A stretch of 64,000 bases of DNA from the NCBI GenBank assembly GCA_963716405.1, contig CAVQTI010000014.1, forward strand, positions 350,885-414,884, written 5' to 3'. This DNA is from an uncultured Acidobacteriota bacterium (GTDB lineage Bacteria; Acidobacteriota; Terriglobia; Terriglobales; Acidobacteriaceae). Positions 44,818 to 56,438 of this stretch are shown piece by piece (position 1 is the stretch's first letter; every line of letters begins with the position of its first letter). The notes beneath the pieces were generated by a model. The model was not told the DNA's origin and did not search any database. It saw only the letters and a program-made list of their open reading frames with translations. The position numbers and the translations under genes were made by a program.

Positions 44818-46155
44818 CTAATGGCCCGGCTGGGAGCTAAATGTCTCAGGAGGATCTAAAAAGCAGCGGCGCCAGAAGGCTTGATCGGAGAGCGCACCGG
44901 CTTTCCATTGCTGCAGGGTAGGCAAGGTTGCAGCCGCCATTCCTCCGTCTTCCGAATCGAAAATCAGCACCACTCCGGCGGCGCTGGTTGGGGCTTGAGT
45001 TAGTTCGGCGTATTCTTTGCCGAAAAGCGATTTGGCGAATTCGAGCTTGGCTCGCGAACCGGTGTCAGTTGTGCCCGCGCTGGCGTTTTGAACGGTTAGA
45101 ATTTTCACCGTCTTTCCGCGAAGCGGTTCCCAGGTGCCGGGGAAAGAGGCAATCTCTTCATTCTTCACCTGAAAATTTTCCGCGTTGGCTTGCGCCGGGG
45201 AATTTTCACCTTTCGCTTCGGACGCGAAGTTACTCGGCATTTCGACGCCCGAGCGCCGCATCCATCCGCGAGACAGGCCCGAAATCCGCACGTGCACCCA
45301 GTTCGCATTCATGTCCAGAATTTCGAATTCATCTTCCGCGGTTGCGAGAAATAAAACTTTGGCGCCTTCAATCGGATTTCCCAGCACCGGCGTGCCCGAC
45401 TTCTTGACGGCGACCAGGTTTTTGGGGTGCGCTTGATTGCGCAGAATTTCCTCCAATCCTTTCGCTTCTTTGGTCAGGTCCTCCATGTGTTTATCGGCGA
45501 CTGCCTTCTGCGTGGCCAAGGAGGCCGCGAGATCGGAGTTAACCGGATTACCCATCTTGAAAGGAGAATTTTCAGGCATTGGTTTGGAAGACGCGAGCGG
45601 GGCGCTTGAAATCGCGTCGCCAGGCTGGGGGGCGGAGATGGTTGGCGTGGACGCCGCCGGCTTGCTCTTAAGCTGCGGTGGTGGCGAATTAACGGAGGCA
45701 TTCGCAGCGGGCGGTGAGCCAGTGCTGCCGAGCGCATCCTCGAGGCGATCGAGAAAATCGGTTTCCAGGCGGCCGTTGGAAGGGAGTTCCAGGTAGCCGG
45801 ATTTCGATGAAGCGGGATCGGCATACCACGCAGTTATTTTCGTGCTAACCCGCACTGTCGCGCCGCCGGATGGAGTTGAAATCACCTGCACCGCGCACTG
45901 ATAATAGCCACGCTGGAAGCGATCTAAAGGTCGATCGCCGGGACGAGTGAAGCCATCCAGTGTAGGCAAACGTCCCGAGGCCGAAGACTGCAACTGCCTC
46001 AGAGTTTTTTCTACTGATGCCTTGGATTGCGAAAACGTGCGCTCGTAGGGAGCGCTTTGAGCGGCACTGATGACAGCCAATGGCATCGTCGTAGCCAGCC
46101 AGAAAATGAGAAACCAGAGCCAGTGCGAAGCTGCAATCAAATGGATTCGCCTCAT
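44818..46155 (-). CDS. hypothetical exported protein with SH3b-like domain
   Basis: ATG 46155 overlaps the upstream stop as ATGA. It has a signal/anchor (HWLWFLIFWLATTMPLAVISAAQS) and an SH3b-like stretch, VLFLATAEDEFEILDMNANWVHVRISGLSRGWM. Confidence 0.55.
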   Translation of the reverse strand: MRRIHLIAASHWLWFLIFWLATTMPLAVISAAQSAPYERTFSQSKASVEKTLRQLQSSASGRLPTLDGFTRPGDRPLDRFQRGYYQCAVQVISTPSGGATVRVSTKITAWYADPASSKSGYLELPSNGRLETDFLDRLEDALGSTGSPPAANASVNSPPPQLKSKPAASTPTISAPQPGDAISSAPLASSKPMPENSPFKMGNPVNSDLAASLATQKAVADKHMEDLTKEAKGLEEILRNQAHPKNLVAVKKSGTPVLGNPIEGAKVLFLATAEDEFEILDMNANWVHVRISGLSRGWMRRSGVEMPSNFASEAKGENSPAQANAENFQVKNEEIASFPGTWEPLRGKTVKILTVQNASAGTTDTGSRAKLEFAKSLFGKEYAELTQAPTSAAGVVLIFDSEDGGMAAATLPTLQQWKAGALSDQAFWRRCFLDPPETFSSQPGH

Positions 46156-47105
46156 GGCAGCGGCTCCAGTTGATCGTGACGAATCCATCCGTGCTGTCCA
46201 TCCTCAGTTTCGACGCCGAACCAGTAGGGAGTCGCAATTACAATCACGACTTCGGCACCGGTATCCAAAGATTTCAAATTCGAGGCCGTATGAAACGGAG
46301 CGGATTTAAGTTGCGCCCCGGGAGCCTTAATCACCCGTTCGGCTTGCCGGCGAAGCTCCTGGATATGCTGTTCCAAACCTTGCACGGAAGTTTGCGCCGT
46401 GGCCAGAGCCAGGGCCTCATCCTCTTCACTTTTGCGCTCGAGAGCCCGCTTGGCCAACTCTTCCTGGCGCTGTTTTTCGCCCTGCTTAGCCTGACTTTTC
46501 TGCAGTTCGAGCGCGTCAACCTGGTCCTGAATATCTTTGTACTCGGCGCTTTCAACGCTGCCATTGGATTCATGCACGGTACGCCTGAAATCTTCGGTGA
46601 ATACGGCATCGATGCGCAGGATGGTACGATTTGCATCACGGCTTTGCACCACATAGCGAACCGCGAGCGTGCCTTCGTCGCCGGTTTCCTTGAAATTCGC
46701 CGGAGCCAAAACCTTGGTGCGTACTTTGTAAAAAACCGTGCCCGGGTCTTTCCACTCAGGAAACAGTGACGATGAGGAGACCAAATTGGCGCGTTCGACG
46801 TATTTGTCTTTGTTGTATTCGAAAGTGCCTTTGATGATGCCGTCGTCTGCGACAGCCTGCACTGCCTGCAAGACCTCGCTCTCCGGAGCATCGATCTCCG
46901 TGGAGAACGTCTGACCAAACTGTTCTTTTTTGTGTTCGCGGCCATAGAGCGGAACGACTGCTATGGCAAGCCAGAAAACTGAAAGCAGAGCGACGGCTAA
47001 CCTGCGGCAGGATGGGGCCCGCTGCTTTCCGGCGAACGACGGTACACTGTCGCTGACGATGCCGAGAATCTCTACCCTTCTACCGATGTTCCACATGCAC
47101 TTCAA
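46152..47105 (-). CDS. hypothetical membrane-anchored protein with coiled coil and C-terminal SH3b-like domain
   Basis: 317 aa with an anchor (LAVALLSVFWLAIAVVPLYG), a charged coiled coil (QKSQAKQGEKQRQEELAKRALERKSEEDE) and a C-terminal stretch AEVVIVIATPYWFGVETEDGQHGWIRHDQLE. Confidence 0.55.
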   Translation of the reverse strand: MKCMWNIGRRVEILGIVSDSVPSFAGKQRAPSCRRLAVALLSVFWLAIAVVPLYGREHKKEQFGQTFSTEIDAPESEVLQAVQAVADDGIIKGTFEYNKDKYVERANLVSSSSLFPEWKDPGTVFYKVRTKVLAPANFKETGDEGTLAVRYVVQSRDANRTILRIDAVFTEDFRRTVHESNGSVESAEYKDIQDQVDALELQKSQAKQGEKQRQEELAKRALERKSEEDEALALATAQTSVQGLEQHIQELRRQAERVIKAPGAQLKSAPFHTASNLKSLDTGAEVVIVIATPYWFGVETEDGQHGWIRHDQLEPLP

Positions 47106-47426: not shown

Positions 47427-47454
47427 TTGACACTGCTCTAACGAACATGATAAT
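47427..47454 (+). promoter_or_regulatory. candidate sigma-70-type promoter for the cyc2-like/oxidase operon
   Basis: TTGACA (47427-47432), a 16-nt spacer, then GATAAT (47449-47454), inside an AT-rich stretch of about 620 bp. This would give a leader of about 265 nt before ATG 47725. Confidence 0.35.
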
Positions 47455-47724
47455 TACTCCCTCCACGCGCACTTTACAGGGAATGGATGGTTTAACTTGC
47501 AATTTGGCTTTAGGGGAAACCAGATGACTGCTCCTGAGGTGCGTGTCCTCGGCCCAAGTAGGGCGGACTTTCTGTTTTTTCCGTCATCTGGTCAAATGCG
47601 ACCGTTTTCAGCGAACTCTAACCGACAACAATAGATTCAGTAACCATGCTTCGTCCGTTCGTTGTGGCGTCTATGTGATTTGGCATTAATTTTTGCGGTT
47701 GAGATTTCGCATTCAGGAGGAGTG

Positions 47725-49125
47725 ATGATCTCGTCCCGGAGAAATTTTGCGGGTAGCTTGTTGCTGCTGGTGCTGGTGCTGGGCTGCTTCCAAAATGCTA
47801 ATGCGTTGCCCGCCTTCGCCCGCAAGTATGGTTTGCGTTGTTCGGCCTGCCACGAATCGTGGCCAATGCTGAATTACTTTGGACAAAAGTTCAAAGACAA
47901 CGGTTATCAGCTCATGAATGATCGGGATTCTCCGGTCTGGCAGAATCCTTCGTACTGGCCCGTCACCTTCCGTATGACGCCGTCCTGGCACCGCGTCAGC
48001 GGCGCCAGAGTCGCCGAAGATTCGGTACCAGGCGATGCAACCTCCGCCACAGTGGAAAGAAGGGTGACCTCGACCGGCTTCGACTTAAGCGGTCTCGACT
48101 TGCATACCGGTGGGACCCTGGAGAAGAATATTTCGTTTTTCCTGTTGCCTTCTTCAGACAATACCGGAGCTTTTCACTTTGAAACGGTCATGGCTCGCCT
48201 TGACAATCTCTGGGGCAGTTCCTGGTTCAATGTGAAGCTGGGTAAATTTGAGCTGGACAACCTGCTTTCCGAAAAGCGCATTCTGACCTTGACCGGGAAT
48301 GGCGGAGTTTATCAGACATATCACTTCATTCCCGTGGGTGATAACAATATTTTCGGCCAGATCGGCGACAATCAGCTGGGCCTCGAGTACATGGGACATT
48401 CGATGGACGACCGGACGCGAATTTCCGCCGCCCTTATTAGCTCGAGCGACGGTAACGTGGGCCTGGTCACCGGGGCTAACTCTTACACCGGGTTCTTTAC
48501 CGGGAGCCAGGCTTTTGACGCGGGCAAACTGGGTGTGGAGCGCATTGGTTTCTACGCCATGGTAGGACAAGCAGCCACGTTCTATCAGACCGCTGGCGGG
48601 CTGCCGATCCCCGGATCGGGAATCGGTAATAAAAGCTTCAGCCGTGTCGGCTTCGTCGGACAATTCTACTTCGGCCCGCATTTCGACATCCAAGTCGTAA
48701 CCCAACACGGCTCCGATAACGCGTTTTTTGGACAAGGTTTTGGCAACGCCACGGACCCCAGCAATGGATCGACGGCAAACGACCTGCCGAACGCTACACC
48801 GGGAACCGTTCTCCCACCGACAGCTCGTGCGCCTAGCTGGAACGGTGCCACTTTCGAAGCTCATTATGTGTACAGCCCGCAACTGATATTCATCGGGCGC
48901 TTTGAGTTGGAAAGAATGTCGCAGCAAGCCAACACGACGAATCCGTCCAACTTGGGGAATATTACGACTTACACCGTTGGCTACCGCTACAACCCGTTTA
49001 TGACCAGCCGAGCGGGCTTCGCCTGGCACAACGAATACAACTTTCTGCACCAGGACCTCACGTCGTTCTACGGCAACAACGTAAACTCGAGCGAATTGTT
49101 ACTCGGCTTCGACTTCGATTTCTAG
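47725..49125 (+). CDS. Cyc2-like fused monohaem cytochrome c / outer-membrane beta-barrel protein
   Basis: ATG 47725 follows AGGAGG. The signal peptide (LLLLVLVLGCFQNANA) is followed immediately by LPAFARKYGLRCSACHESWPMLNYFGQKFKDNGY, which holds the single CxxCH. About 430 aa of alternating beta-strand-like sequence follow, ending in the OMP-type terminus LLLGFDFDF. Confidence 0.7.
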   Translation: MISSRRNFAGSLLLLVLVLGCFQNANALPAFARKYGLRCSACHESWPMLNYFGQKFKDNGYQLMNDRDSPVWQNPSYWPVTFRMTPSWHRVSGARVAEDSVPGDATSATVERRVTSTGFDLSGLDLHTGGTLEKNISFFLLPSSDNTGAFHFETVMARLDNLWGSSWFNVKLGKFELDNLLSEKRILTLTGNGGVYQTYHFIPVGDNNIFGQIGDNQLGLEYMGHSMDDRTRISAALISSSDGNVGLVTGANSYTGFFTGSQAFDAGKLGVERIGFYAMVGQAATFYQTAGGLPIPGSGIGNKSFSRVGFVGQFYFGPHFDIQVVTQHGSDNAFFGQGFGNATDPSNGSTANDLPNATPGTVLPPTARAPSWNGATFEAHYVYSPQLIFIGRFELERMSQQANTTNPSNLGNITTYTVGYRYNPFMTSRAGFAWHNEYNFLHQDLTSFYGNNVNSSELLLGFDFDF

Positions 49126-49137
49126 AGAGGAACAGCG

Positions 49138-50007
49138 ATGCGGACAAAATTACTTCTGCACAGTTCGTTATTGATAAGCGCGGTTGCTGTTCTCGTGCTT
49201 ACCTTGCCCGCGCGGGCCCAGCTTTCGACTAATCAGCTTGAGGCATGGCTAAACTCACCGGCGGCGACAAGCCACGTTGGCAATATCACTGGCAATGCCA
49301 AGGCCGCTGCCGCGCCCTATCGTAGATATTGCGTCGGTTGCCACGGCGACTTGGGCGATGGCAATGGCGAAAATGCGGTGTGGCTTGATCCAAAGCCACG
49401 CGATTTTCAGCTAGGCATATTCAAGTGCCGCTCCACACCCACCGGTACTCTGCCTACCGATGAGGACCTGTTCGACACTATTGGCCGTGGGTTGGATCGC
49501 TCGAATATGCCAATCTGGAATACTCTTACCAAGGACGAGCGTGCCGACCTGGTGGCATGGATCAAGCATTTTTCTCCCCGCTGGCAGAATGAGAAATCGG
49601 GAGCACCCATCCAGATTCCTACGGAGCCTGAAGTCACACCGGACCGCGTCAAGGCCGGCCAGGAAGTATTCGGCCGGGTCCAGTGTTGGAAGTGTCATGG
49701 AGTTCAGGGCATGGCTAACGGTCCTTCTGCGGCCACTCTTACCGATGATCTTGGCCGGCCGATTCTGCCCTACAATTTCACTGACGGATCTCGGCCGAAG
49801 TGCGGCAGTACCGATCGCGATATCTATAAGATCTTCATGACCGGGCTGGATGGTACGCCTATGCCGTCCTTTGCGGACAACCTCAAGCCAGACGAAGCCT
49901 GGGACTTGGTCTTCTACCTTCGTACTTTGCAACCCCACAACAAGTTTAATGCCAAGGAAAAACAGATCGCCAAGCAACTGGGATTGAAGCCAGTGAATCC
50001 ACAATAG
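49138..50007 (+). CDS. dihaem c-type cytochrome (periplasmic)
   Basis: 289 aa with a signal peptide and two CxxCH sites (CVGCHGDLGDGNG and CWKCHGVQGMANG), each followed by a candidate Met ligand region (SNMPIW, GTPMPSF). Confidence 0.8.
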   Translation: MRTKLLLHSSLLISAVAVLVLTLPARAQLSTNQLEAWLNSPAATSHVGNITGNAKAAAAPYRRYCVGCHGDLGDGNGENAVWLDPKPRDFQLGIFKCRSTPTGTLPTDEDLFDTIGRGLDRSNMPIWNTLTKDERADLVAWIKHFSPRWQNEKSGAPIQIPTEPEVTPDRVKAGQEVFGRVQCWKCHGVQGMANGPSAATLTDDLGRPILPYNFTDGSRPKCGSTDRDIYKIFMTGLDGTPMPSFADNLKPDEAWDLVFYLRTLQPHNKFNAKEKQIAKQLGLKPVNPQ

Positions 50008-50047: not shown

Positions 50048-50794
50048 ATGAAGAACCAGAGGTATTCGAAGTACGTGGCAGTACTATTGGGTGTAGTACT
50101 GGTTGGTTTCGCGGCGGTCAGCCTTAACCAACACGTCAGCGCTGCCGCGGAAGGCTCGATTGCCGGCACGGTGAAACTCAACGGTCCCGCACCTCACATG
50201 AAGGGCATCGACATGTCGAAAGATCCCTATTGTGTGAAGCAGCATGAAAACAGTCCGGCGCACCTGGAGAATATTGAGGTGGGATCGGGCGGTGGAATAA
50301 AGAACGTCGTTCTGTACATCTCGGAAGGTCTCACCGGTAACGAGGCCAGCACGGCTTCAGGCACGCCGACTTTCGACCAGAAGGGTTGTATGTACATTCC
50401 GCACGTTCTGGCTATGGATGTTGGCCAGACCTTCAAGGTCATCACCAGCGATCAGACAACCCACAACATTCATCCGCTGCCCAATCCAATGACGGGGAAC
50501 ATTCCCTGGAACGAATCGCAGCCGCCGGGAGCGCCGCCTATCATGAAGAGCTGGAAGGCGCCCGAAATGATTCCCGTCAAATGCAACATTCATCCGTGGA
50601 TGCACGGATATCACGCGGTAGTAAAGGGGCCGTACGCTACTACTGATGATAGCGGGGCTTACACCATTCACGGGGTTCCTCCCGGCAGTTATACGGTCAC
50701 TGCCTGGCAGGAAGAGTTGGGCACTCAGACACAGAAAGTGACCGTGGCTGCGGGAAAACCCGGAAGCGCGGATTTCACCTTCAAGCCGAAATAG
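50048..50794 (+). CDS. cupredoxin (type-1 copper) domain protein with CarboxypepD_reg-like flanks
   Basis: ATG 50048 follows AGGAG. It has an N-terminal anchor. The type-1 Cu ligand pattern is THNIHP ... KCNIHPWMHGY (His ... Cys-x2-His-x2-Met, amicyanin-like spacing). The C-terminus, YTIHGVPPGSYTVTAWQEELG, looks like a beta-sandwich. Confidence 0.7.
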   Translation: MKNQRYSKYVAVLLGVVLVGFAAVSLNQHVSAAAEGSIAGTVKLNGPAPHMKGIDMSKDPYCVKQHENSPAHLENIEVGSGGGIKNVVLYISEGLTGNEASTASGTPTFDQKGCMYIPHVLAMDVGQTFKVITSDQTTHNIHPLPNPMTGNIPWNESQPPGAPPIMKSWKAPEMIPVKCNIHPWMHGYHAVVKGPYATTDDSGAYTIHGVPPGSYTVTAWQEELGTQTQKVTVAAGKPGSADFTFKPK

Positions 50795-50889: not shown

Positions 50890-51693
50890 ATGGCGAAAAT
50901 CTTTGCCGTTACCGTTATCTTAATTGCAATTGCGTCCGCGATTCCCATCCTCCGGCATACTTGGGTGGCGCCCGAGGACATTTCGACTCATGGCGTGATG
51001 ATCGATGAGCAGATGTCAGAGACTATGGCAGAGGCGGGAATCGCGTTTCTGGCTGCGCAGTTCGTTCTCGCCATCTTTGTGTGGATGTTTTCCGGTCGAG
51101 GCAAAGACGCCAAGATCACCACTTTTCCCGGCGGCGCCACCGGATTGGTGGTAGCCGCTTTCCTCCTTGTGGGTACTGAGGTGCTGGCTCTCGGCATTTT
51201 CGGAGTAAAGGCTTGGGCCGACGTTTATCTCACGCCACCCTCAGCCTCAGCTATGCCCGTTCAAGTCCAGGCCGGACAGTTCGCCTTTTATTTTCGCTAC
51301 CCCGGCCCCGATGGAACATTCGGCCCGCTGCATCCCGAACTGATCAGCGAAGCCAACGAGAACTTCTTTGGGCTGGATACCACTCACGATGCGGATTCCA
51401 AAGACGACATTGTCACAGCCGAAATGGCGATCCCGGTGAACAAGGAAGTCCATCTGCTCATGCACTCGAAAGATCTCGGACATTCGTTTTTCGTGCGGGA
51501 GTTGCGAGTGCAACAGGATTTTGTTCCTGGGTTGGATGTGTCTCTTCATTTCACCGCGACCAAGGTTGGAAGATACGAAATCGTCTGCACGCAACTTTGT
51601 GGTTTGGGACATTACAACATGAAGGCATACCTCTCTGTCCTGTCCCAGGCAGACTTTGATGATTGGTTAAAGAAGCAAGCGGCACTGCAGTAG
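50890..51693 (+). CDS. coxB: cytochrome c oxidase subunit II (CuA, no fused cytochrome c domain)
   Basis: Two N-terminal TM helices and the CuA site HSFFV ... CTQLCGLGHYNM. There is no CxxCH. The start is ATG 50890, or the ORF start at 50806. Confidence 0.88.
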   Translation: MAKIFAVTVILIAIASAIPILRHTWVAPEDISTHGVMIDEQMSETMAEAGIAFLAAQFVLAIFVWMFSGRGKDAKITTFPGGATGLVVAAFLLVGTEVLALGIFGVKAWADVYLTPPSASAMPVQVQAGQFAFYFRYPGPDGTFGPLHPELISEANENFFGLDTTHDADSKDDIVTAEMAIPVNKEVHLLMHSKDLGHSFFVRELRVQQDFVPGLDVSLHFTATKVGRYEIVCTQLCGLGHYNMKAYLSVLSQADFDDWLKKQAALQ

Positions 51694-51741: not shown

Positions 51742-53526
51742 ATGCACGATACATCAGCACATGCGGCACAACATCACGCCCCGACAAGCTTTATTAGCAA
51801 GCACGTCTTCAGTCTGGACCACAAGGTCATCGGGAAACAATACTACGCTCTGGCTCTGGTGGCGGTTTTTACGGGCATGGTGCTGTCATGGATAATGCGC
51901 CTTCACCTGGGATGGACCAGCCTGGCAATTCCCGGTCTCCATTTTCTTTCTAAAGCCGGGGCTCCTGGCGACGTGATGACGCCGGAGTTTTACCTGCAAC
52001 TGATGACGATGCACGGCACGATCATGGTGTTTTTCGTGCTCACCACCGCACCTTTTGCGGCCTTCGGAAACTATTTTCTACCCATCCAGGTCGGCGCGGA
52101 AGACATGCCCTTCCCCCACTTCAATATGATGTCGTTTTGGGTCACCTTCGTCTCCTTCCTGGTTCTGATGGCATCGTTCTTCGTGGGTGACGGTCCAACC
52201 TTAGGTGGATGGACCCAGTACGCGCCGCTTAGCGCCGTGGGTTCGGTCGGAGGCCCGGGCGAAGGATTGGGCACGGTTTTGTGGGCAGCTTCGATTGGAA
52301 TTTTTTGTGTGGGGCAGTTACTGGGCTCTCTGAACTTCATCACGACCACGCTCGACATGCGGACCAAGGGCATGAGCATGATGCGGCTGCCGTTAAGCGC
52401 CTGGGCATGGTTTGTGACTTCCTGCATGGGCCTCACTGCTTTCGCCGTGCTGATGCCAGCTACAATCCTGCTGATTCTGGATCACGTAGCCGGAACCAGT
52501 TTCTTCGTTCCCTCCAACCTGGTGATCAACGATCAGATACAGCCGCATTCCGGCGGATCAACTCTGCTTTGGCAGCACCTGTTCTGGTTCTTTGGACATC
52601 CCGAGGTTTACATCGCCATCGTGCCAGGAATAGGCATCGTCTCCCATATTCTCATCACTAACCTGCGCCGGCCGCTGCTCAGCCATCGCGTGATGATCTA
52701 CTGTATGGGAGCTCTTGCCGTTCTCAGTTACATGGTTTACGGGCATCACATGTTTGTCAGCGGAATGAACCCATATTCCTCCCTGGCATTCTCGTTCCCG
52801 ACGCTGGTAATCACCATCCCGGCGACGATCATGGTTCTGATCCTGCTGGGCAGCATTTGGGGCTCCCGGTTGCGCATCAATACGGCGTCACTGTTCGCTC
52901 TTGGCTTCATCTCCATGTTCGTTAGCGGCGGAGTCAGCGGCTTTTTCTTGGCCCAACCTTCAGTCGACATCATGCTGCATGCGACCTACTTCGTAGTCGG
53001 CCACTTTCACATGGTAATGGCAGTGGCGGCAATTTTCGGGATCTTCGCCGGCACCTATTTCTGGTTCCCGAAGATGACCGGGCGCATGATGAATGAGACT
53101 TTGGGCAAAATACATTTCTGGCTCAGCTTCGTGGGCACGTATTGTATCTTTATGCCATTCCACTACTTGGGCATGGCTGGCAATGTGCGCCGTTATCAGG
53201 CCTTTGTCGATGATTTCATGCAGCCCCTCATTCCGGTTCACAAGTTCATTACGATTGCTGCGATCTTGACCGGCGCATCGCAGTTCATTTTTCTCTACAA
53301 TCTGATTCACAGCCGGTTCTGGGGCAAGCCCGCGCCGGATAATCCTTGGGAGGGTACTTCGCTGGAGTGGAGCACGCCCACGACTCCTCCGCCACACAAC
53401 AATTTTGGCGATCATCTGCCCGTGGTTTACCACGATCCCTATCAGTATGGCGTGAAGAGTTCGACGGGCGATTACCTTATGCAGACTTCGCCAGACCAGG
53501 TTGCAAACGCGAAGGATGAGAAGTAG
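51742..53526 (+). CDS. ctaD: cytochrome c oxidase subunit I
   Basis: 594 aa. Haem-copper oxidase landmarks: WFFGHPEVYI, HHMF, VVGHFHMVM. Confidence 0.95.
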   Translation: MHDTSAHAAQHHAPTSFISKHVFSLDHKVIGKQYYALALVAVFTGMVLSWIMRLHLGWTSLAIPGLHFLSKAGAPGDVMTPEFYLQLMTMHGTIMVFFVLTTAPFAAFGNYFLPIQVGAEDMPFPHFNMMSFWVTFVSFLVLMASFFVGDGPTLGGWTQYAPLSAVGSVGGPGEGLGTVLWAASIGIFCVGQLLGSLNFITTTLDMRTKGMSMMRLPLSAWAWFVTSCMGLTAFAVLMPATILLILDHVAGTSFFVPSNLVINDQIQPHSGGSTLLWQHLFWFFGHPEVYIAIVPGIGIVSHILITNLRRPLLSHRVMIYCMGALAVLSYMVYGHHMFVSGMNPYSSLAFSFPTLVITIPATIMVLILLGSIWGSRLRINTASLFALGFISMFVSGGVSGFFLAQPSVDIMLHATYFVVGHFHMVMAVAAIFGIFAGTYFWFPKMTGRMMNETLGKIHFWLSFVGTYCIFMPFHYLGMAGNVRRYQAFVDDFMQPLIPVHKFITIAAILTGASQFIFLYNLIHSRFWGKPAPDNPWEGTSLEWSTPTTPPPHNNFGDHLPVVYHDPYQYGVKSSTGDYLMQTSPDQVANAKDEK

Positions 53527-53567: not shown

Positions 53568-54245
53568 ATGGCAAGTACGGTTCATGAACCGCCACAAATC
53601 GACAAGCGACGTTTGCCGGATCTGAAGCAATCCGGAAACGGCGGTTGGCGGAATCTTGTGCCCGCGAACGGCGATCTGCGGGCGATAAAAGATTACTCTC
53701 CGCCAGCGTCGTCAACGGGAATTTGGGTGGTGCTGTTTGCCATCACCATGATGTTCGCCGCTTTTACCAGCGCGTTAGTGGTTCGCAAAGGTTCGTCGCT
53801 GGACTGGCGGCATTTTGCCCTCCCCTCCATTCTTTATTTCAATACGTTTCTGTTGTTGATGAGCAGTGTGACCCTTGAGGTCGCGCGCCGGCGCGTAGCC
53901 GCTTTCATGGGCGGTCTGCGCAAGGAAAATGAAAACCCAGCGCGATGGCTGTACATCACATTATTTCTGGGACTGCTTTTTGTGGCTGGCCAATACATCG
54001 CATGGCGTCAACTCAGTGCTGAGGGAGTTTTTCTCGCCACCAATCCCAGCAGTTCGTTTTTCTATGTACTCACTGCAACCCATGCGCTGCATGTACTGGG
54101 CGGCTTAGGCGGAATTATTTTTGTCATCCGCAAGCTTAACCGGTCTGCGTTGCGGCGCAACACCTTAGTTGCAGCAGCGCGCTACTGGCATTACATGGAC
54201 GTGCTTTGGATATACCTGCTGTTGCTGTTGTGGATGAATTTTTAA
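53568..54245 (+). CDS. haem-copper oxidase subunit III family protein (first of two)
   Basis: About 225 aa and polytopic. It ends RYWHYMDVLWIYLLLLLW, the typical subunit III C-terminal W-H-F-V-D-x-V-W-like motif. Confidence 0.8.
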   Translation: MASTVHEPPQIDKRRLPDLKQSGNGGWRNLVPANGDLRAIKDYSPPASSTGIWVVLFAITMMFAAFTSALVVRKGSSLDWRHFALPSILYFNTFLLLMSSVTLEVARRRVAAFMGGLRKENENPARWLYITLFLGLLFVAGQYIAWRQLSAEGVFLATNPSSSFFYVLTATHALHVLGGLGGIIFVIRKLNRSALRRNTLVAAARYWHYMDVLWIYLLLLLWMNF

Positions 54246-54270: not shown

Positions 54271-54891
54271 GTGAGCCAAGCTGATTTGACAATGGGAGCA
54301 CACTCCGCAGGTATGGTGGCGGAACCCCCGTTTTCCATGCCTACCAAAAAGTTGGCAATGTGGTTGTTCATCATTGCCGACACCATGACATTTGCCGCAT
54401 GCCTGGTGGCTTATGGATTCCTGCGCGTTGGCACGCCCACTTGGCCGAGGCCTTTTCACAGCATCACTAACGTCGCGATCATGACCTTCATCCTGCTGAG
54501 CAGCAGTTTGACCATGATGCTCGGAGTGCAATCGGCGAAGACCGGGGATAAAGCCGGAGCCTTTCGCTGGACTATGATCACGGCGGCGCTCGGCATCGTA
54601 TTCGCTCTGCTGCACATTCGGGAATGGCTGGCGCTGATCGACGAAGGCATGACGCTGTTTAAGAATCCGTGGGGAACCGGACTGTTCGGCGCGTCATTTT
54701 TCAGCATCACCGGCTTGCACCTCACCCACGTTACCTGTGGCGTAATCGCTCTCATCGCCGTCGGCTTGCGTTACAAAGGTGGCCGTTACAACGCCGACGA
54801 TCTTGAGATTATGGGCCTCTACTGGCACTTCGTGGATCTGGTTTGGATGTTTGTGGTGCCGCTGGTATATCTGTTGAACCTTTCCCACTAG
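54271..54891 (+). CDS. ctaE: cytochrome c oxidase subunit III (second of two)
   Basis: 206 aa. GTG 54271 follows AGGAGG. Motifs: FFSITGLHLTHVTCGV and YWHFVDLVWMFVVPLVYL. Confidence 0.85.
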   Translation: MSQADLTMGAHSAGMVAEPPFSMPTKKLAMWLFIIADTMTFAACLVAYGFLRVGTPTWPRPFHSITNVAIMTFILLSSSLTMMLGVQSAKTGDKAGAFRWTMITAALGIVFALLHIREWLALIDEGMTLFKNPWGTGLFGASFFSITGLHLTHVTCGVIALIAVGLRYKGGRYNADDLEIMGLYWHFVDLVWMFVVPLVYLLNLSH

Positions 54892-54912: not shown

Positions 54913-55239
54913 ATGGCAGTCACGCAACAACATAAAGAAAACGCAACCGGTAAGTACCTGATAGTTTATGTCTGCTTATTGGCTCTGGCTGGAATTCAGT
55001 TCGTGATCGCCTATCAGAATATTGATCCCGGCCAAATGTTCGTCCGCATGATGATCGTCGCCTTCGTGGAGGCACTGCTTGCGGTTCTGATTTTTATGCA
55101 TTTATGGGCAGAGAGCCGTGCCTTCGTGATTTTTGTGGCGGTGTTTACAATTTTTGTGCTGCTCGCTATGCAATATGGATGGACCGACAGTTTTCGCATG
55201 GAGCATGGCGGCGCGCCTTATTCCAATTATTCGAAGTAA
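54913..55239 (+). CDS. prokaryotic cytochrome c oxidase subunit IV family protein
   Basis: 108 aa with three hydrophobic helices, in the standard position after subunit III. Confidence 0.7.
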   Translation: MAVTQQHKENATGKYLIVYVCLLALAGIQFVIAYQNIDPGQMFVRMMIVAFVEALLAVLIFMHLWAESRAFVIFVAVFTIFVLLAMQYGWTDSFRMEHGGAPYSNYSK

Positions 55240-55267: not shown

Positions 55268-55543
55268 ATGAAGTTAGCTAAGCCGCTCCCGTTGCTTGCC
55301 ATTGCGCTGCTGGGACTGACGTTGCTGGCGTTTCCTGTCCCGGTGTTCGCCCAGGGTTGCGCGCTCTGCTATACTCAGGCCGCTTCCGCGGGCGCTCGCA
55401 TGATTCAGGCTTTGCGCAGTGGAATTTTGATTCTGATTATTCCTCCCACACTCATGTCCGTTGGTATGATTTTTATTGTTCGGCAGAAACGCAGTCAGTT
55501 TAAGCGGAGCGAAGCCGCAGACGATTCTGGTCAAGACTGGTAA
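55268..55543 (+). CDS. small exported/membrane protein with CxxC motif
   Basis: 91 aa. A signal peptide ending VFAQG is followed by CALCY, one TM helix (ILILIIPPTLMSVGMIFIV) and a charged tail. It has an SD-like AGAGGA and a 2-nt gap to ctaB. Confidence 0.55.
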   Translation: MKLAKPLPLLAIALLGLTLLAFPVPVFAQGCALCYTQAASAGARMIQALRSGILILIIPPTLMSVGMIFIVRQKRSQFKRSEAADDSGQDW

Positions 55544-55544
55544 A

Positions 55545-56438
55545 ATGGCCACCACTACTTTAATGGCAAACTCTCCGCAGACTCTTACCGCCAAGCTTCG
55601 GGATTACTACACTCTCACCAAGCCAGAAGTGAACCTGCTTATTCTGATGACCACGTCGGCGGGCTATTATCTCGCCTCCCGCGGGCCGTTCAAGATTGCA
55701 GGCTTGGTCAATACGTTGGTGGGCACGCTTCTGGTTGCCAGCGGAACTGCAACCCTGAATCAATGGATGGAACGGGTGTTCGACGGCCAGATGCGTCGCA
55801 CCGCGAACCGGCCTTTGCCTTCAGGACGTCTCAGCACGCACGAAGCGCTTCTGTTCGGCATTTTGTTGAGCGTGGCCGGCGGAGTTTATCTTGCGATTAC
55901 AGTAAATCTGTTATCGGCATTCTTGGCAGTCTCGACGTTGCTCTCGTATCTGCTGATCTATACGCCGTTGAAGCGGAAAACCCCGCTGTGCACGCTGCTG
56001 GGTGCATTCCCTGGTGCGATGCCGACTTTAATCGGATGGGCCGGCGCCTCCAATGGCATTAACATGCATGCGTGGTATCTTTTTTCGATTCTCTTCCTGT
56101 GGCAATTTCCACACTTCCTCGCCATCGCTTTGATGTACCGCGACGATTACGCGCGTGCCGGCTATCGTATGCTGCCCGACTTCGATCTTGACTCCCGTTT
56201 CACGCGCGCCGAGATCGTCGGCTTCACTCTCGTCCTAATCGTCACCACCATGCTGCCTCTCGTCGGACGCGGCGGTCCAGTCTATGTTGTTGGCATGCTG
56301 CTGGCGGGAATCTTCATGTTGTATCACGTTGCCAAGCTGGCGCAATCTACCTCGAAAGCCTTGGCTAGCCGCGTGGTTCACGCCTCGGTTATTTATCTTC
56401 CAATTGTCCTTCTGATAATGGTTACCCACAAAGGCTGA
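55545..56438 (+). CDS. ctaB: protohaem IX farnesyltransferase (haem O synthase)
   Basis: From ATG 55545. UbiA-family motifs: NQWMERVFDGQMRRTANRPLPSGR and YRDDYARAG. Confidence 0.9.
   Translation: MATTTLMANSPQTLTAKLRDYYTLTKPEVNLLILMTTSAGYYLASRGPFKIAGLVNTLVGTLLVASGTATLNQWMERVFDGQMRRTANRPLPSGRLSTHEALLFGILLSVAGGVYLAITVNLLSAFLAVSTLLSYLLIYTPLKRKTPLCTLLGAFPGAMPTLIGWAGASNGINMHAWYLFSILFLWQFPHFLAIALMYRDDYARAGYRMLPDFDLDSRFTRAEIVGFTLVLIVTTMLPLVGRGGPVYVVGMLLAGIFMLYHVAKLAQSTSKALASRVVHASVIYLPIVLLIMVTHKG

Follow-up and report, generated by a model that had tools for sequence, protein, structure and literature searches.

A Cyc2-like cytochrome-porin gene heading a rus-like oxidase operon in a Terriglobales acidobacterium

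Cyc2 is the main genetic marker for microbial iron oxidation in metagenomes, and its meaning beyond the classical iron oxidizers is uncertain. The sequence criteria for the protein are a signal peptide, one CXXCH, the motif AXPXFAR[Q/K][T/Y] upstream of the haem site, PXL after it, and a length of more than 365 amino acids (aa); a further criterion is a 16-strand porin with an OprO/OprP-like structure (PMC8406198). The motif AXPXFAR[Q/K][T/Y] has been called unique to Cyc2 (PMC8406198). All of the biochemically tested members (A. ferrooxidans Cyc2, Cyt572 and Cyc2 PV-1) oxidize Fe(II) (PMC8406198, PMC7029218). In the rus operon of Acidithiobacillus the gene order is cyc2-cyc1-cup-coxBACD...ctaB, with close variants in Acidiferrobacter and Acidihalobacter, and the sequence-similarity network cluster of Cyt572 is reported to include homologues from Acidobacteria and Nitrospira (PMC10654088). 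In MtoAB, PioAB and MtrAB, electron transfer across the outer membrane also takes place through a barrel plus c-type haem (PMC10654088). Here we describe a cyc2-like gene, and the carrier and oxidase genes downstream of it, in 64,000 nucleotides of an uncultured Acidobacteriota bacterium (contig CAVQTI010000014.1 of assembly GCA_963716405.1, positions 350,885 to 414,884 of the forward strand). We call this whole stretch of DNA the window, and coordinates refer to it.

The gene for the Cyc2-family fused cytochrome-porin (47725..49125, +) encodes 466 aa plus stop. Its product is very probably a Cyc2-family cytochrome-porin of the outer membrane. The cytochrome block, recognized by regular expression, invariant columns and hhalign, covers aa 27-61 (47803..47907, +) and reads ALPAFARKY-GLR-CSACH-ESW-PML-NYFGQKFKDNGY. 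ALPAFARKY at aa 27-35 corresponds to the AXPXFAR[Q/K][T/Y] motif, and PML follows the haem site (CSACH-ESW-PML) in the place of PXL. A single N-terminal CXXCH is present, as is a signal peptide (by inspection), and the length of 466 aa lies above the 365-aa limit. The FAR-x5-C spacing is the same as that in the PV-1 peptide ...R-QTGAA-CLSCH. An earlier sequence-only reading of this gene had named an N-terminal FAR-x5-C-x2-CH block in Cyc2; this block is real and matches both the published signature and the PV-1 peptide.

The conservation of this block was examined in a family alignment (A1) of 31 members, which reaches down to 26% identity and has few invariant columns. C39, C42, H43, P29, F31, A32 and P47 were invariant in all 31 members, and these seven columns all fell in one block, A-x-P-A-F-A-R-K-Y-x3-C-x-x-C-H-x3-P-x-L-N-x-F-G. 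Because neither the haem ligands nor the motif vary among the 31 members, some of them as low as 26% identity, the Cyc2 signature is not a chance occurrence. A terminal aromatic residue was retained in most of the 31 members. Pfam and NCBIfam scans of the protein returned no family, and a phmmer search against PDB sequences returned just a chance match (8rk9, E 0.034).

For direct comparison, Zetaproteobacteria Cyc2 sequences were retrieved with concatenated mass-spectrometry peptides of PV-1 (Table S1, PMC8406198), including QTGAACLSCHFQTFPALNAFGR. The peptide query did not retrieve PV-1 itself, but its matches included the Cyc2 proteins of M. ferrinatatus CP-8, M. aestuarium and M. micogutta. 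The reference set consisted of 22 Zetaproteobacteria sequences (alignment A2). Pairwise BLASTP aligned 27 residues around the haem site, of which 15 were identical (E 2e-6). When A1 and A2 were compared at full length by hhalign, the probability was 98.4% and the E value 6.4e-15, over 373 columns. The cytochrome block alone gave a probability of 99% and E 8.6e-18 against the 22 sequences, while the barrel alone gave 0.1% and E 0.43. Whole-protein homology, which the 373-column match might have suggested, was rejected on this barrel-only result. Homology to Cluster-1 Cyc2 can thus be demonstrated in the cytochrome block alone; what the barrel has in common with those proteins is its architecture. 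A poor conservation of the porin part of Cyc2 has been remarked before (PMC8406198), in agreement with the barrel-only result. The Cyc2 similarity that the earlier reading had put up for checking was seen in the cytochrome block and not in the sequence of the barrel.

The fold of the protein was predicted with AlphaFold2 (AF2) from alignment A1, with a mean predicted local distance difference test score (pLDDT) of 80.2 and a predicted template modelling score (pTM) of 0.79. In the model, short helices lie over the haem block, and aa 80-465 form 16 strand elements with seven short turns and eight loops, the long ones at aa 176-216 (the position of porin L3) and aa 332-370. Foldseek returned 224 matches in the PDB at E up to 1e-3. 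The top match was OprP (2o4v_A, E 1.3e-11, template modelling (TM) score 0.61 by target length), OprO was already among the top five, and its entries 4rjx and 4rjw were in the top nine; PorB, Omp32 and OmpF-type porins were among the matches as well, all of them 16-strand barrels. Because of the AF2 strand count and the best Foldseek matches, the predicted barrel (aa 80-466; 47962..49122, +; 16 strand elements and a terminal GFDFDF) appears to be of the OprO/OprP-like kind described for Cyc2. OprP and OprO are the templates named for Cyc2 (PMC8406198), and PorB is that reported for Cyt572 (PMC10654088). The beta-rich, porin-length body seen earlier, for which a transmembrane-barrel fold had been named as the check, was accordingly modelled as a 16-strand porin with OprP as its best PDB match. 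The Cyc2 criteria, the homology of the cytochrome block and the predicted porin fold together support the earlier statement that the protein belongs to the Cyc2 family and is not a soluble cytochrome. This family assignment is firm. We infer the iron-oxidizing function; the protein would lie in the outer membrane and would carry its haem c covalently attached.

The gene lies in an open reading frame (ORF) of 47662..49125 (+) that opens with TTG. The ATG at 47725 sits 5 nt past an AGGAGG Shine-Dalgarno sequence and yields the 466-aa protein. The signal peptide (aa 1-27, MISSRRNFAGSLLLLVLVLGCFQNANA; 47725..47805, +), which was judged by eye, has RR in the n-region, an LLLLVLVL core and ANA ahead of the cut. 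In the translation we found ...CFQNANA|LPAFARKYGLRCSACHESWPMLNYFGQKFKDNGY, with LPAFARKY as the predicted mature N-terminus; the parallel in Zetaproteobacteria Cyc2 is SEA|IPAFARQ, and the cut position is conserved in the family alignment. A regular expression found a single C..CH, CSACH at aa 39-43 (DNA 47839-47853), and the third of the three Cys residues in the protein is within the signal peptide. The mature protein consists of 11.4% G, 8.4% S, 8.2% F, 7.3% N and 4.1% Y, and its C-terminus is LLLGFDFDF. The ANA|LP cut and the sole CxxCH in 466 residues were therefore as first read, and the strings YTVGYRYNPF, GFAWHNEYNF and the C-terminal LLLGFDFDF quoted at that time were each located in the translation. 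The richness in Gly, Tyr and Asn noted in the same reading was borne out for Gly and Asn; Tyr was just modestly raised, and Phe was more prominent. A 298-aa antisense ORF at 48154-49050 (-) lies wholly within the gene. We assume that it is a by-product of the coding frame, with no independent support.

A distal haem ligand was sought in the 31-member alignment, in which no Met or His outside the CXXCH was invariant. H225 in the barrel (aa 223-226, MGHS) is nearly invariant, and in Zetaproteobacteria Cyc2 a GQH that hardly varies occupies a comparable relative place. Judged from these alignments, H225 could be the distal ligand.

The strongest functional clue, missed in the earlier reading, is the rus-like operon downstream. 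The cyc2-like gene is first in a same-strand cluster with intergenic gaps of 12-95 bp. It is followed, 12 bp past its end, by a gene for a periplasmic dihaem cytochrome c of 289 aa (49138..50007, +; Pfam Cytochrom_C, and Cytochrome_CBB3 twice) with its own signal peptide and haem sites CVGCH at aa 65 and CWKCH at aa 183. Among solved structures its closest relative is 6h5l_B (E 1.9e-55), which a Kuenenia HAO entry lists as a "conserved hypothetical cytochrome". No Acidithiobacillus cytochrome was found among the PDB matches at E up to 1. Chain B of 6H5L is the partner of an anammox HAO-like enzyme, a carrier type common to very different respiratory systems.

The next gene (50048..50794, +) encodes a membrane-anchored cupredoxin-like/CarboxypepD_reg protein of 248 aa, as identified by Pfam CarboxypepD_reg, metal ligands, profile comparison and Foldseek. 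Its annotation is just "CarboxypepD_reg", and the transthyretin-like domain is split by a cupredoxin-like insert. The hallmark of a copper site is ...YIPHVLAMDVGQTFKVITSDQTTHNIHP...VKCNIHPWMHG..., in which H139, C179, H182 and M185 (C-N-I-H-P-W-M) are invariant in 24 orthologues, down to 42% identity. The spacing C-x2-H-x2-M is of the amicyanin type. The family profile matched the type-1 copper protein 5fc9_A of Nitrosopumilus over its whole length (E 1.2e-3). Foldseek with the predicted model returned the NirK cupredoxin domain, many amicyanins (E ~1.6e-3, TM 0.59), plastocyanins and Cupredoxin_1, and some JGI members of the family carry the name "plastocyanin". The AF2 model, made from alignment A4, was weak (pLDDT 70.5, with one of five models folded), and the N-terminal 165 residues had no Pfam match even at E 10. 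Because the model is weak, assignment of the protein as a cupredoxin, from its ligands and predicted fold, is probable. The composite protein has more than 6,000 relatives.

The oxidase genes come next. CoxB, cytochrome c oxidase subunit II (50890..51693, +; Pfam COX2; TIGR02866 CoxB, E 5.6e-29), carries all of the CuA ligands (GHSFF...CTQLCGLGHYNM), and therefore the enzyme is a cytochrome c oxidase and not a quinol oxidase. CoxA, subunit I of an A-family haem-copper oxidase, follows at 51742..53526 (+; Pfam COX1, E 1.2e-123; TIGR02891 CtaD_CoxA, E 2.4e-159). Two tandem COX3-family genes (Pfam COX3) lie at 53568-54245 and 54271-54891 (+); this pair, of 225 and 206 aa, stands in place of one gene. 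They are followed by coxD for oxidase subunit IV (COX4_pro; 54913..55239, +; TIGR02229, E 1e-5), by a conserved small ORF of 91 aa, orf91 (55268..55543, +), with hydrophobic ends, a signal or transmembrane segment and a CALCY motif, and by the gene for the haem O synthase CtaB (55563..56438, +; TIGR01473, 265 bits with a cut-off of 210; Pfam UbiA). The product of orf91, which lies between COX4 and ctaB, may help in the assembly of the oxidase or be one of its small subunits. The set makes up a complete A-family (aa3-type) oxidase. No additional cupredoxin ORF was found between 47.7 and 57.1 kb; the other ORFs were COX4, orf91, CtaB and a 210-aa membrane protein.

Two genes at 46152-47105 and 44818-46188 (-) are divergent from the operon on its upstream side. 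The first has a weak SH3 match (TIGR04211), and its counterpart in the Acidoferrales-type locus L091 has SH3_3; the pair is without a Pfam family. The 620-bp divergent intergenic region contains a promoter-like site, TTGACA-16-GATAAT (47427..47454, +), about 270 bp upstream of the cyc2-like start. It is the top consensus match there (11/12), and the number of promoter-like sites in the region was not above that in shuffled sequences, so the promoter call is weak.

Conservation of this context was counted by tblastn of the window proteins against the best 80 species loci, drawn from a scan of one genome per GTDB species in which at least 586 genomes had a relative of the Cyc2-like protein. The operon genes were always downstream of it, on the same strand and in the same order in the matching loci, and most of the misses were contig ends. 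The dihaem cytochrome gene was found in all 80 loci, the cupredoxin/CPD-reg gene in 79, COX2 in 76, COX1 in 74, both copies of COX3 in 72, orf91 in 71 and COX4 in 68. The two divergent upstream genes were found in 76 and 75 of the loci, and also in L091. Some loci have an extra gene of ~1-2 kb between the cupredoxin gene and coxB (L006 and, at similar offsets, L009, L010, L019, L040, L046, L061, L064 and L070). The product of the one in L006 (13203-14147, +) has a C-terminus that resembles, by eye, a STAS/anti-sigma-antagonist domain. This hints, from sequence, at an added regulation of the oxidase genes.

More distant relatives showed how far these linkages extend. The whole operon was present at P0238 (53% identity; a cluster member named "Ca. 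Acidoferrales"), and the same dihaem cytochrome followed the relative at P0240 (49%). At P0289 and P0306 (both 35%) the dihaem cytochrome and CPD-reg genes, and for P0289 a Cupredoxin_1 gene too, were present without an adjacent haem-copper oxidase. The order at P0303 (33%) was COX3-COX4-x-COX2-COX1-COX3-dihaem-cyc2-dihaem, with SCO1 and a CarboxypepD_reg gene upstream; this cluster, from JGI sample 3300047160, has the same parts in another order. The genes at P0285, P0297 and P0325 (~35%) stand alone. The dihaem cytochrome is thus the most constant neighbour of cyc2, present even where no oxidase is adjacent. That the genes stay linked even where their order has changed is good evidence that haem porin, dihaem cytochrome, copper protein and oxidase are functionally coupled.

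A porin that serves oxidase biogenesis or nutrient uptake, through passage of copper, iron or haem, with its own haem structural or acting as a sensor, would fit a barrel that resembles substrate-specific and general porins (OprP, OprO, PorB, Omp32). It would also fit the position of the gene at the head of an operon that requires Cu and haem, and the SCO1 copper chaperone in the related cluster P0303. We regard this as very unlikely, given that strict conservation in the protein is confined to the haem-binding block, which proven iron oxidases also have, and that its most constant neighbour, even without the oxidase, is a soluble dihaem electron carrier.

The reading that we favour, with moderate confidence for the pathway as a whole, is a route from Fe(II) to O2 through the Cyc2-like porin, the carriers and the aa3 oxidase. 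Extracellular Fe(II), dissolved or organically complexed, would be oxidized at the Cyc2 haem, which would pass the electron to the soluble periplasmic dihaem cytochrome c. The latter would deliver it, directly or via the cupredoxin, to CuA of the aa3 oxidase, which would reduce O2. By this route a heterotroph of acid soil or peat would draw additional energy from Fe(II). Electrons led straight to a high-potential oxidase, with no bc complex in between, would suit the Fe couple, whose potential is high in acidic peat and soil. The electron donor, the direction of flow and the conservation of energy are all predictions.

The same parts could in principle run the other way. When O2 is scarce, the dihaem cytochrome would pass electrons to the haem of the Cyc2-like protein and on to extracellular Fe(III) or humics, the porin acting as an overflow valve on the oxidase operon. 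A one-haem conduit is reversible in principle, and electrons could naturally branch off at the dihaem cytochrome. Fe(III) is reduced by Acidobacteriaceae isolates from which no multihaem conduits are known. Co-transcription with a terminal oxidase and the repeated linkage to the oxidase through rearrangement point instead to O2 as the acceptor. Moreover, no quinol dehydrogenase or multihaem module is linked to the genes (Pfam scans of the operon proteins gave no multihaem cytochrome gene in the operon), and the characterized members of the family all act as oxidases. We consider outward flow rather improbable.

It is improbable to a similar degree that inward flow serves protection, Fe(II) being oxidized at the surface and kept from the aerobic periplasm, with less Fenton chemistry and encrustation and no meaningful gain of energy. 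The host lineage, heterotrophic and living in acidic peat and soil rich in Fe(II), would fit such a role, for which the predicted hardware is identical to that of Fe(II)-dependent respiration. Electrons that enter a proton-pumping A-family oxidase would, however, conserve energy automatically, and the difference between protection and the favoured Fe(II)-to-O2 pathway is one of degree.

The family is large. A word-indexed search returned more than 5,183 relatives, the best 120 of which were 71-100% identical and nearly all named "hypothetical". Among representatives at 50% identity, an exhaustive search counted 2,083 clusters with E up to 1e-3, of which 463 had E up to 1e-10. This size, together with the at least 586 species genomes, would be in line with a donor other than Fe(II) that uses the same hardware and inward flow, such as humic or quinone substances in reduced form, Mn(II) or some other soluble reductant that abounds in peat. 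The sequence specifies no substrate, and the hosts are not known iron oxidizers. In "Ca. Manganitrophus", moreover, a role in Mn oxidation has been proposed for Cyc2 homologues (PMC9040806). We judge such a donor unlikely in view of the activity on Fe(II) of every biochemically tested member (PMC8406198, PMC7029218); in addition, a single haem inside a 16-strand pore would fit a small dissolved ion better than bulky humics.

Several points weigh against the Fe(II)-to-O2 pathway. Relatedness to Cyc2 of the validated type, as far as sequence comparison goes, is demonstrable only in about 50 residues plus the architecture, the barrel-only comparison having found no similarity. Three of nine distant relatives examined are without redox neighbours. 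There is no rusticyanin gene in the operon, and its two carriers are not orthologues of those of the rus system, as described below. The cupredoxin call depends on scores of E ~1e-3 and a model with pLDDT 70.5, both weak. Terriglobales are aerobic heterotrophs not known to oxidize iron, and the operon may be the housekeeping aa3 oxidase of this order. Finally, many Cyc2 homologues occur in organisms without known iron oxidation (PMC7029218).

The host of the cyc2-like gene is a Terriglobales acidobacterium. Among the best 80 of the at least 586 genomes, nearly all are metagenome-assembled genomes (MAGs) labelled Terriglobales, Acidobacteriaceae, Acidobacteriota or "Ca. Sulfotelmatobacter", and their names refer to peat, palsa, SPRUCE and Microflora Danica (Danish soil) samples. 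Three are labelled otherwise: L039 and L069 as Verrucomicrobiia and L044 as Binatia. Their copies are 69-71% identical and show full Terriglobales synteny. These contigs represent either mis-binned Acidobacteriota or recent transfer.

A mobile island was considered for the locus itself and rejected. The window is evenly composed and carries rpoD, dnaG and guaA, which indicates that the cyc2-like locus is part of the core chromosome. It is possible, though we hold this with less than even confidence, that the rus-like module (Cyc2 porin, dihaem cytochrome, composite cupredoxin and aa3 oxidase) is standard in Terriglobales and related Acidobacteriota and is kept vertically in the core chromosome. 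In that case, heterotrophs that rank among the most abundant in acidic soil and peat would be lithoheterotrophs able to respire Fe(II) facultatively, and the composite cupredoxin/CarboxypepD_reg protein would represent a novel type of blue-copper electron carrier bound to the membrane.

Cyc2 in Acidobacteriota MAGs has already been reported in the literature by annotation pipelines. For Terriglobia or "Ca. Sulfotelmatobacter" we found no description that links Cyc2 with an oxidase operon, and none of the composite cupredoxin, in a literature coverage that was incomplete. The conserved rus-like operon of Terriglobales is apparently undescribed so far. It places the Cyc2 marker in a dominant soil and peat lineage, tied to a dedicated set of periplasmic carriers and to a terminal oxidase, the genes following the order known from the best-understood iron-oxidation operon. 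It thereby offers for Acidobacteriota a specific and testable route of Fe(II)-dependent respiration, with a bearing on the turnover of iron, carbon and oxygen at the oxic-anoxic interfaces of acidic wetlands and soils. Should the protein turn out not to oxidize iron, this would warn against reading Cyc2 matches as iron oxidation.

Among the known outer-membrane systems, MtoAB, PioAB and MtrAB differ in build. They consist of two proteins, with a decahaem cytochrome threading a larger barrel, while the Cyc2-like protein is one polypeptide with one CXXCH and 16 strands and falls outside this class. The barrel by itself is closest to OprP and OprO (2o4v, 4rjw, 4rjx), the best barrel matches, at E 1.3e-11 to 6e-10 and TM 0.57-0.61 (target length). 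These porins share 12% sequence identity with it, are without a haem domain, and serve transport and not redox reactions.

Cyt572 (Cyc572) of Leptospirillum is alike by description: a monohaem cytochrome-porin of the outer membrane whose CXXCH is N-terminal and whose 16-strand model is PorB-like (PMC10654088). It differs in being longer (residues beyond 550 are cited, PMC10654088), and its partner genes are unclustered in Leptospirillum.

In Cyc2 of the Zetaproteobacteria (PV-1 and others), the signal peptide is likewise cut 1-2 residues before PAFAR. The block A[IL]PAFAR[QK][TY]-x3-CXXCH...PxLNxFG, the one haem and the 16-strand OprP/OprO-like porin body are also shared. The Zetaproteobacteria proteins have ~405-415 aa and end in L or M, whereas the Terriglobales protein has 466 aa and ends in F. 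The spacer between CXXCH and PxL is three residues across the family of the Terriglobales protein (CHESWPML) but four in the Zetaproteobacteria sequences compared (CHFQTFPAL). A further difference is that the Terriglobales host is a heterotrophic acidobacterium, in which the gene heads an oxidase operon.

The rus operon is the closest in organization, a likeness of gene classes and order. In both, an outer-membrane haem porin, a dihaem cytochrome c and a membrane cupredoxin are followed by coxB, coxA, coxC, coxD and then ctaB. The sink in both is a cytochrome c oxidase of the aa3 type, and both hosts live in acidic habitats. The Terriglobales operon is without rusticyanin, ctaA and ctaT, and has two COX3 genes. 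Its dihaem cytochrome, closest to 6h5l_B, is not orthologous to Cyc1, a cytochrome c4, and its cupredoxin is embedded in a CarboxypepD_reg domain and is not an orthologue of AcoP/Cup. Because rusticyanin is absent and the carriers are non-orthologous, we do not class this operon as a rus operon, although it would work like one. The comparison lends itself to asking which parts of the rus design are essential, given that the Terriglobales operon does without rusticyanin and uses other carriers. The shared gene order would reflect either an old common design or convergence.

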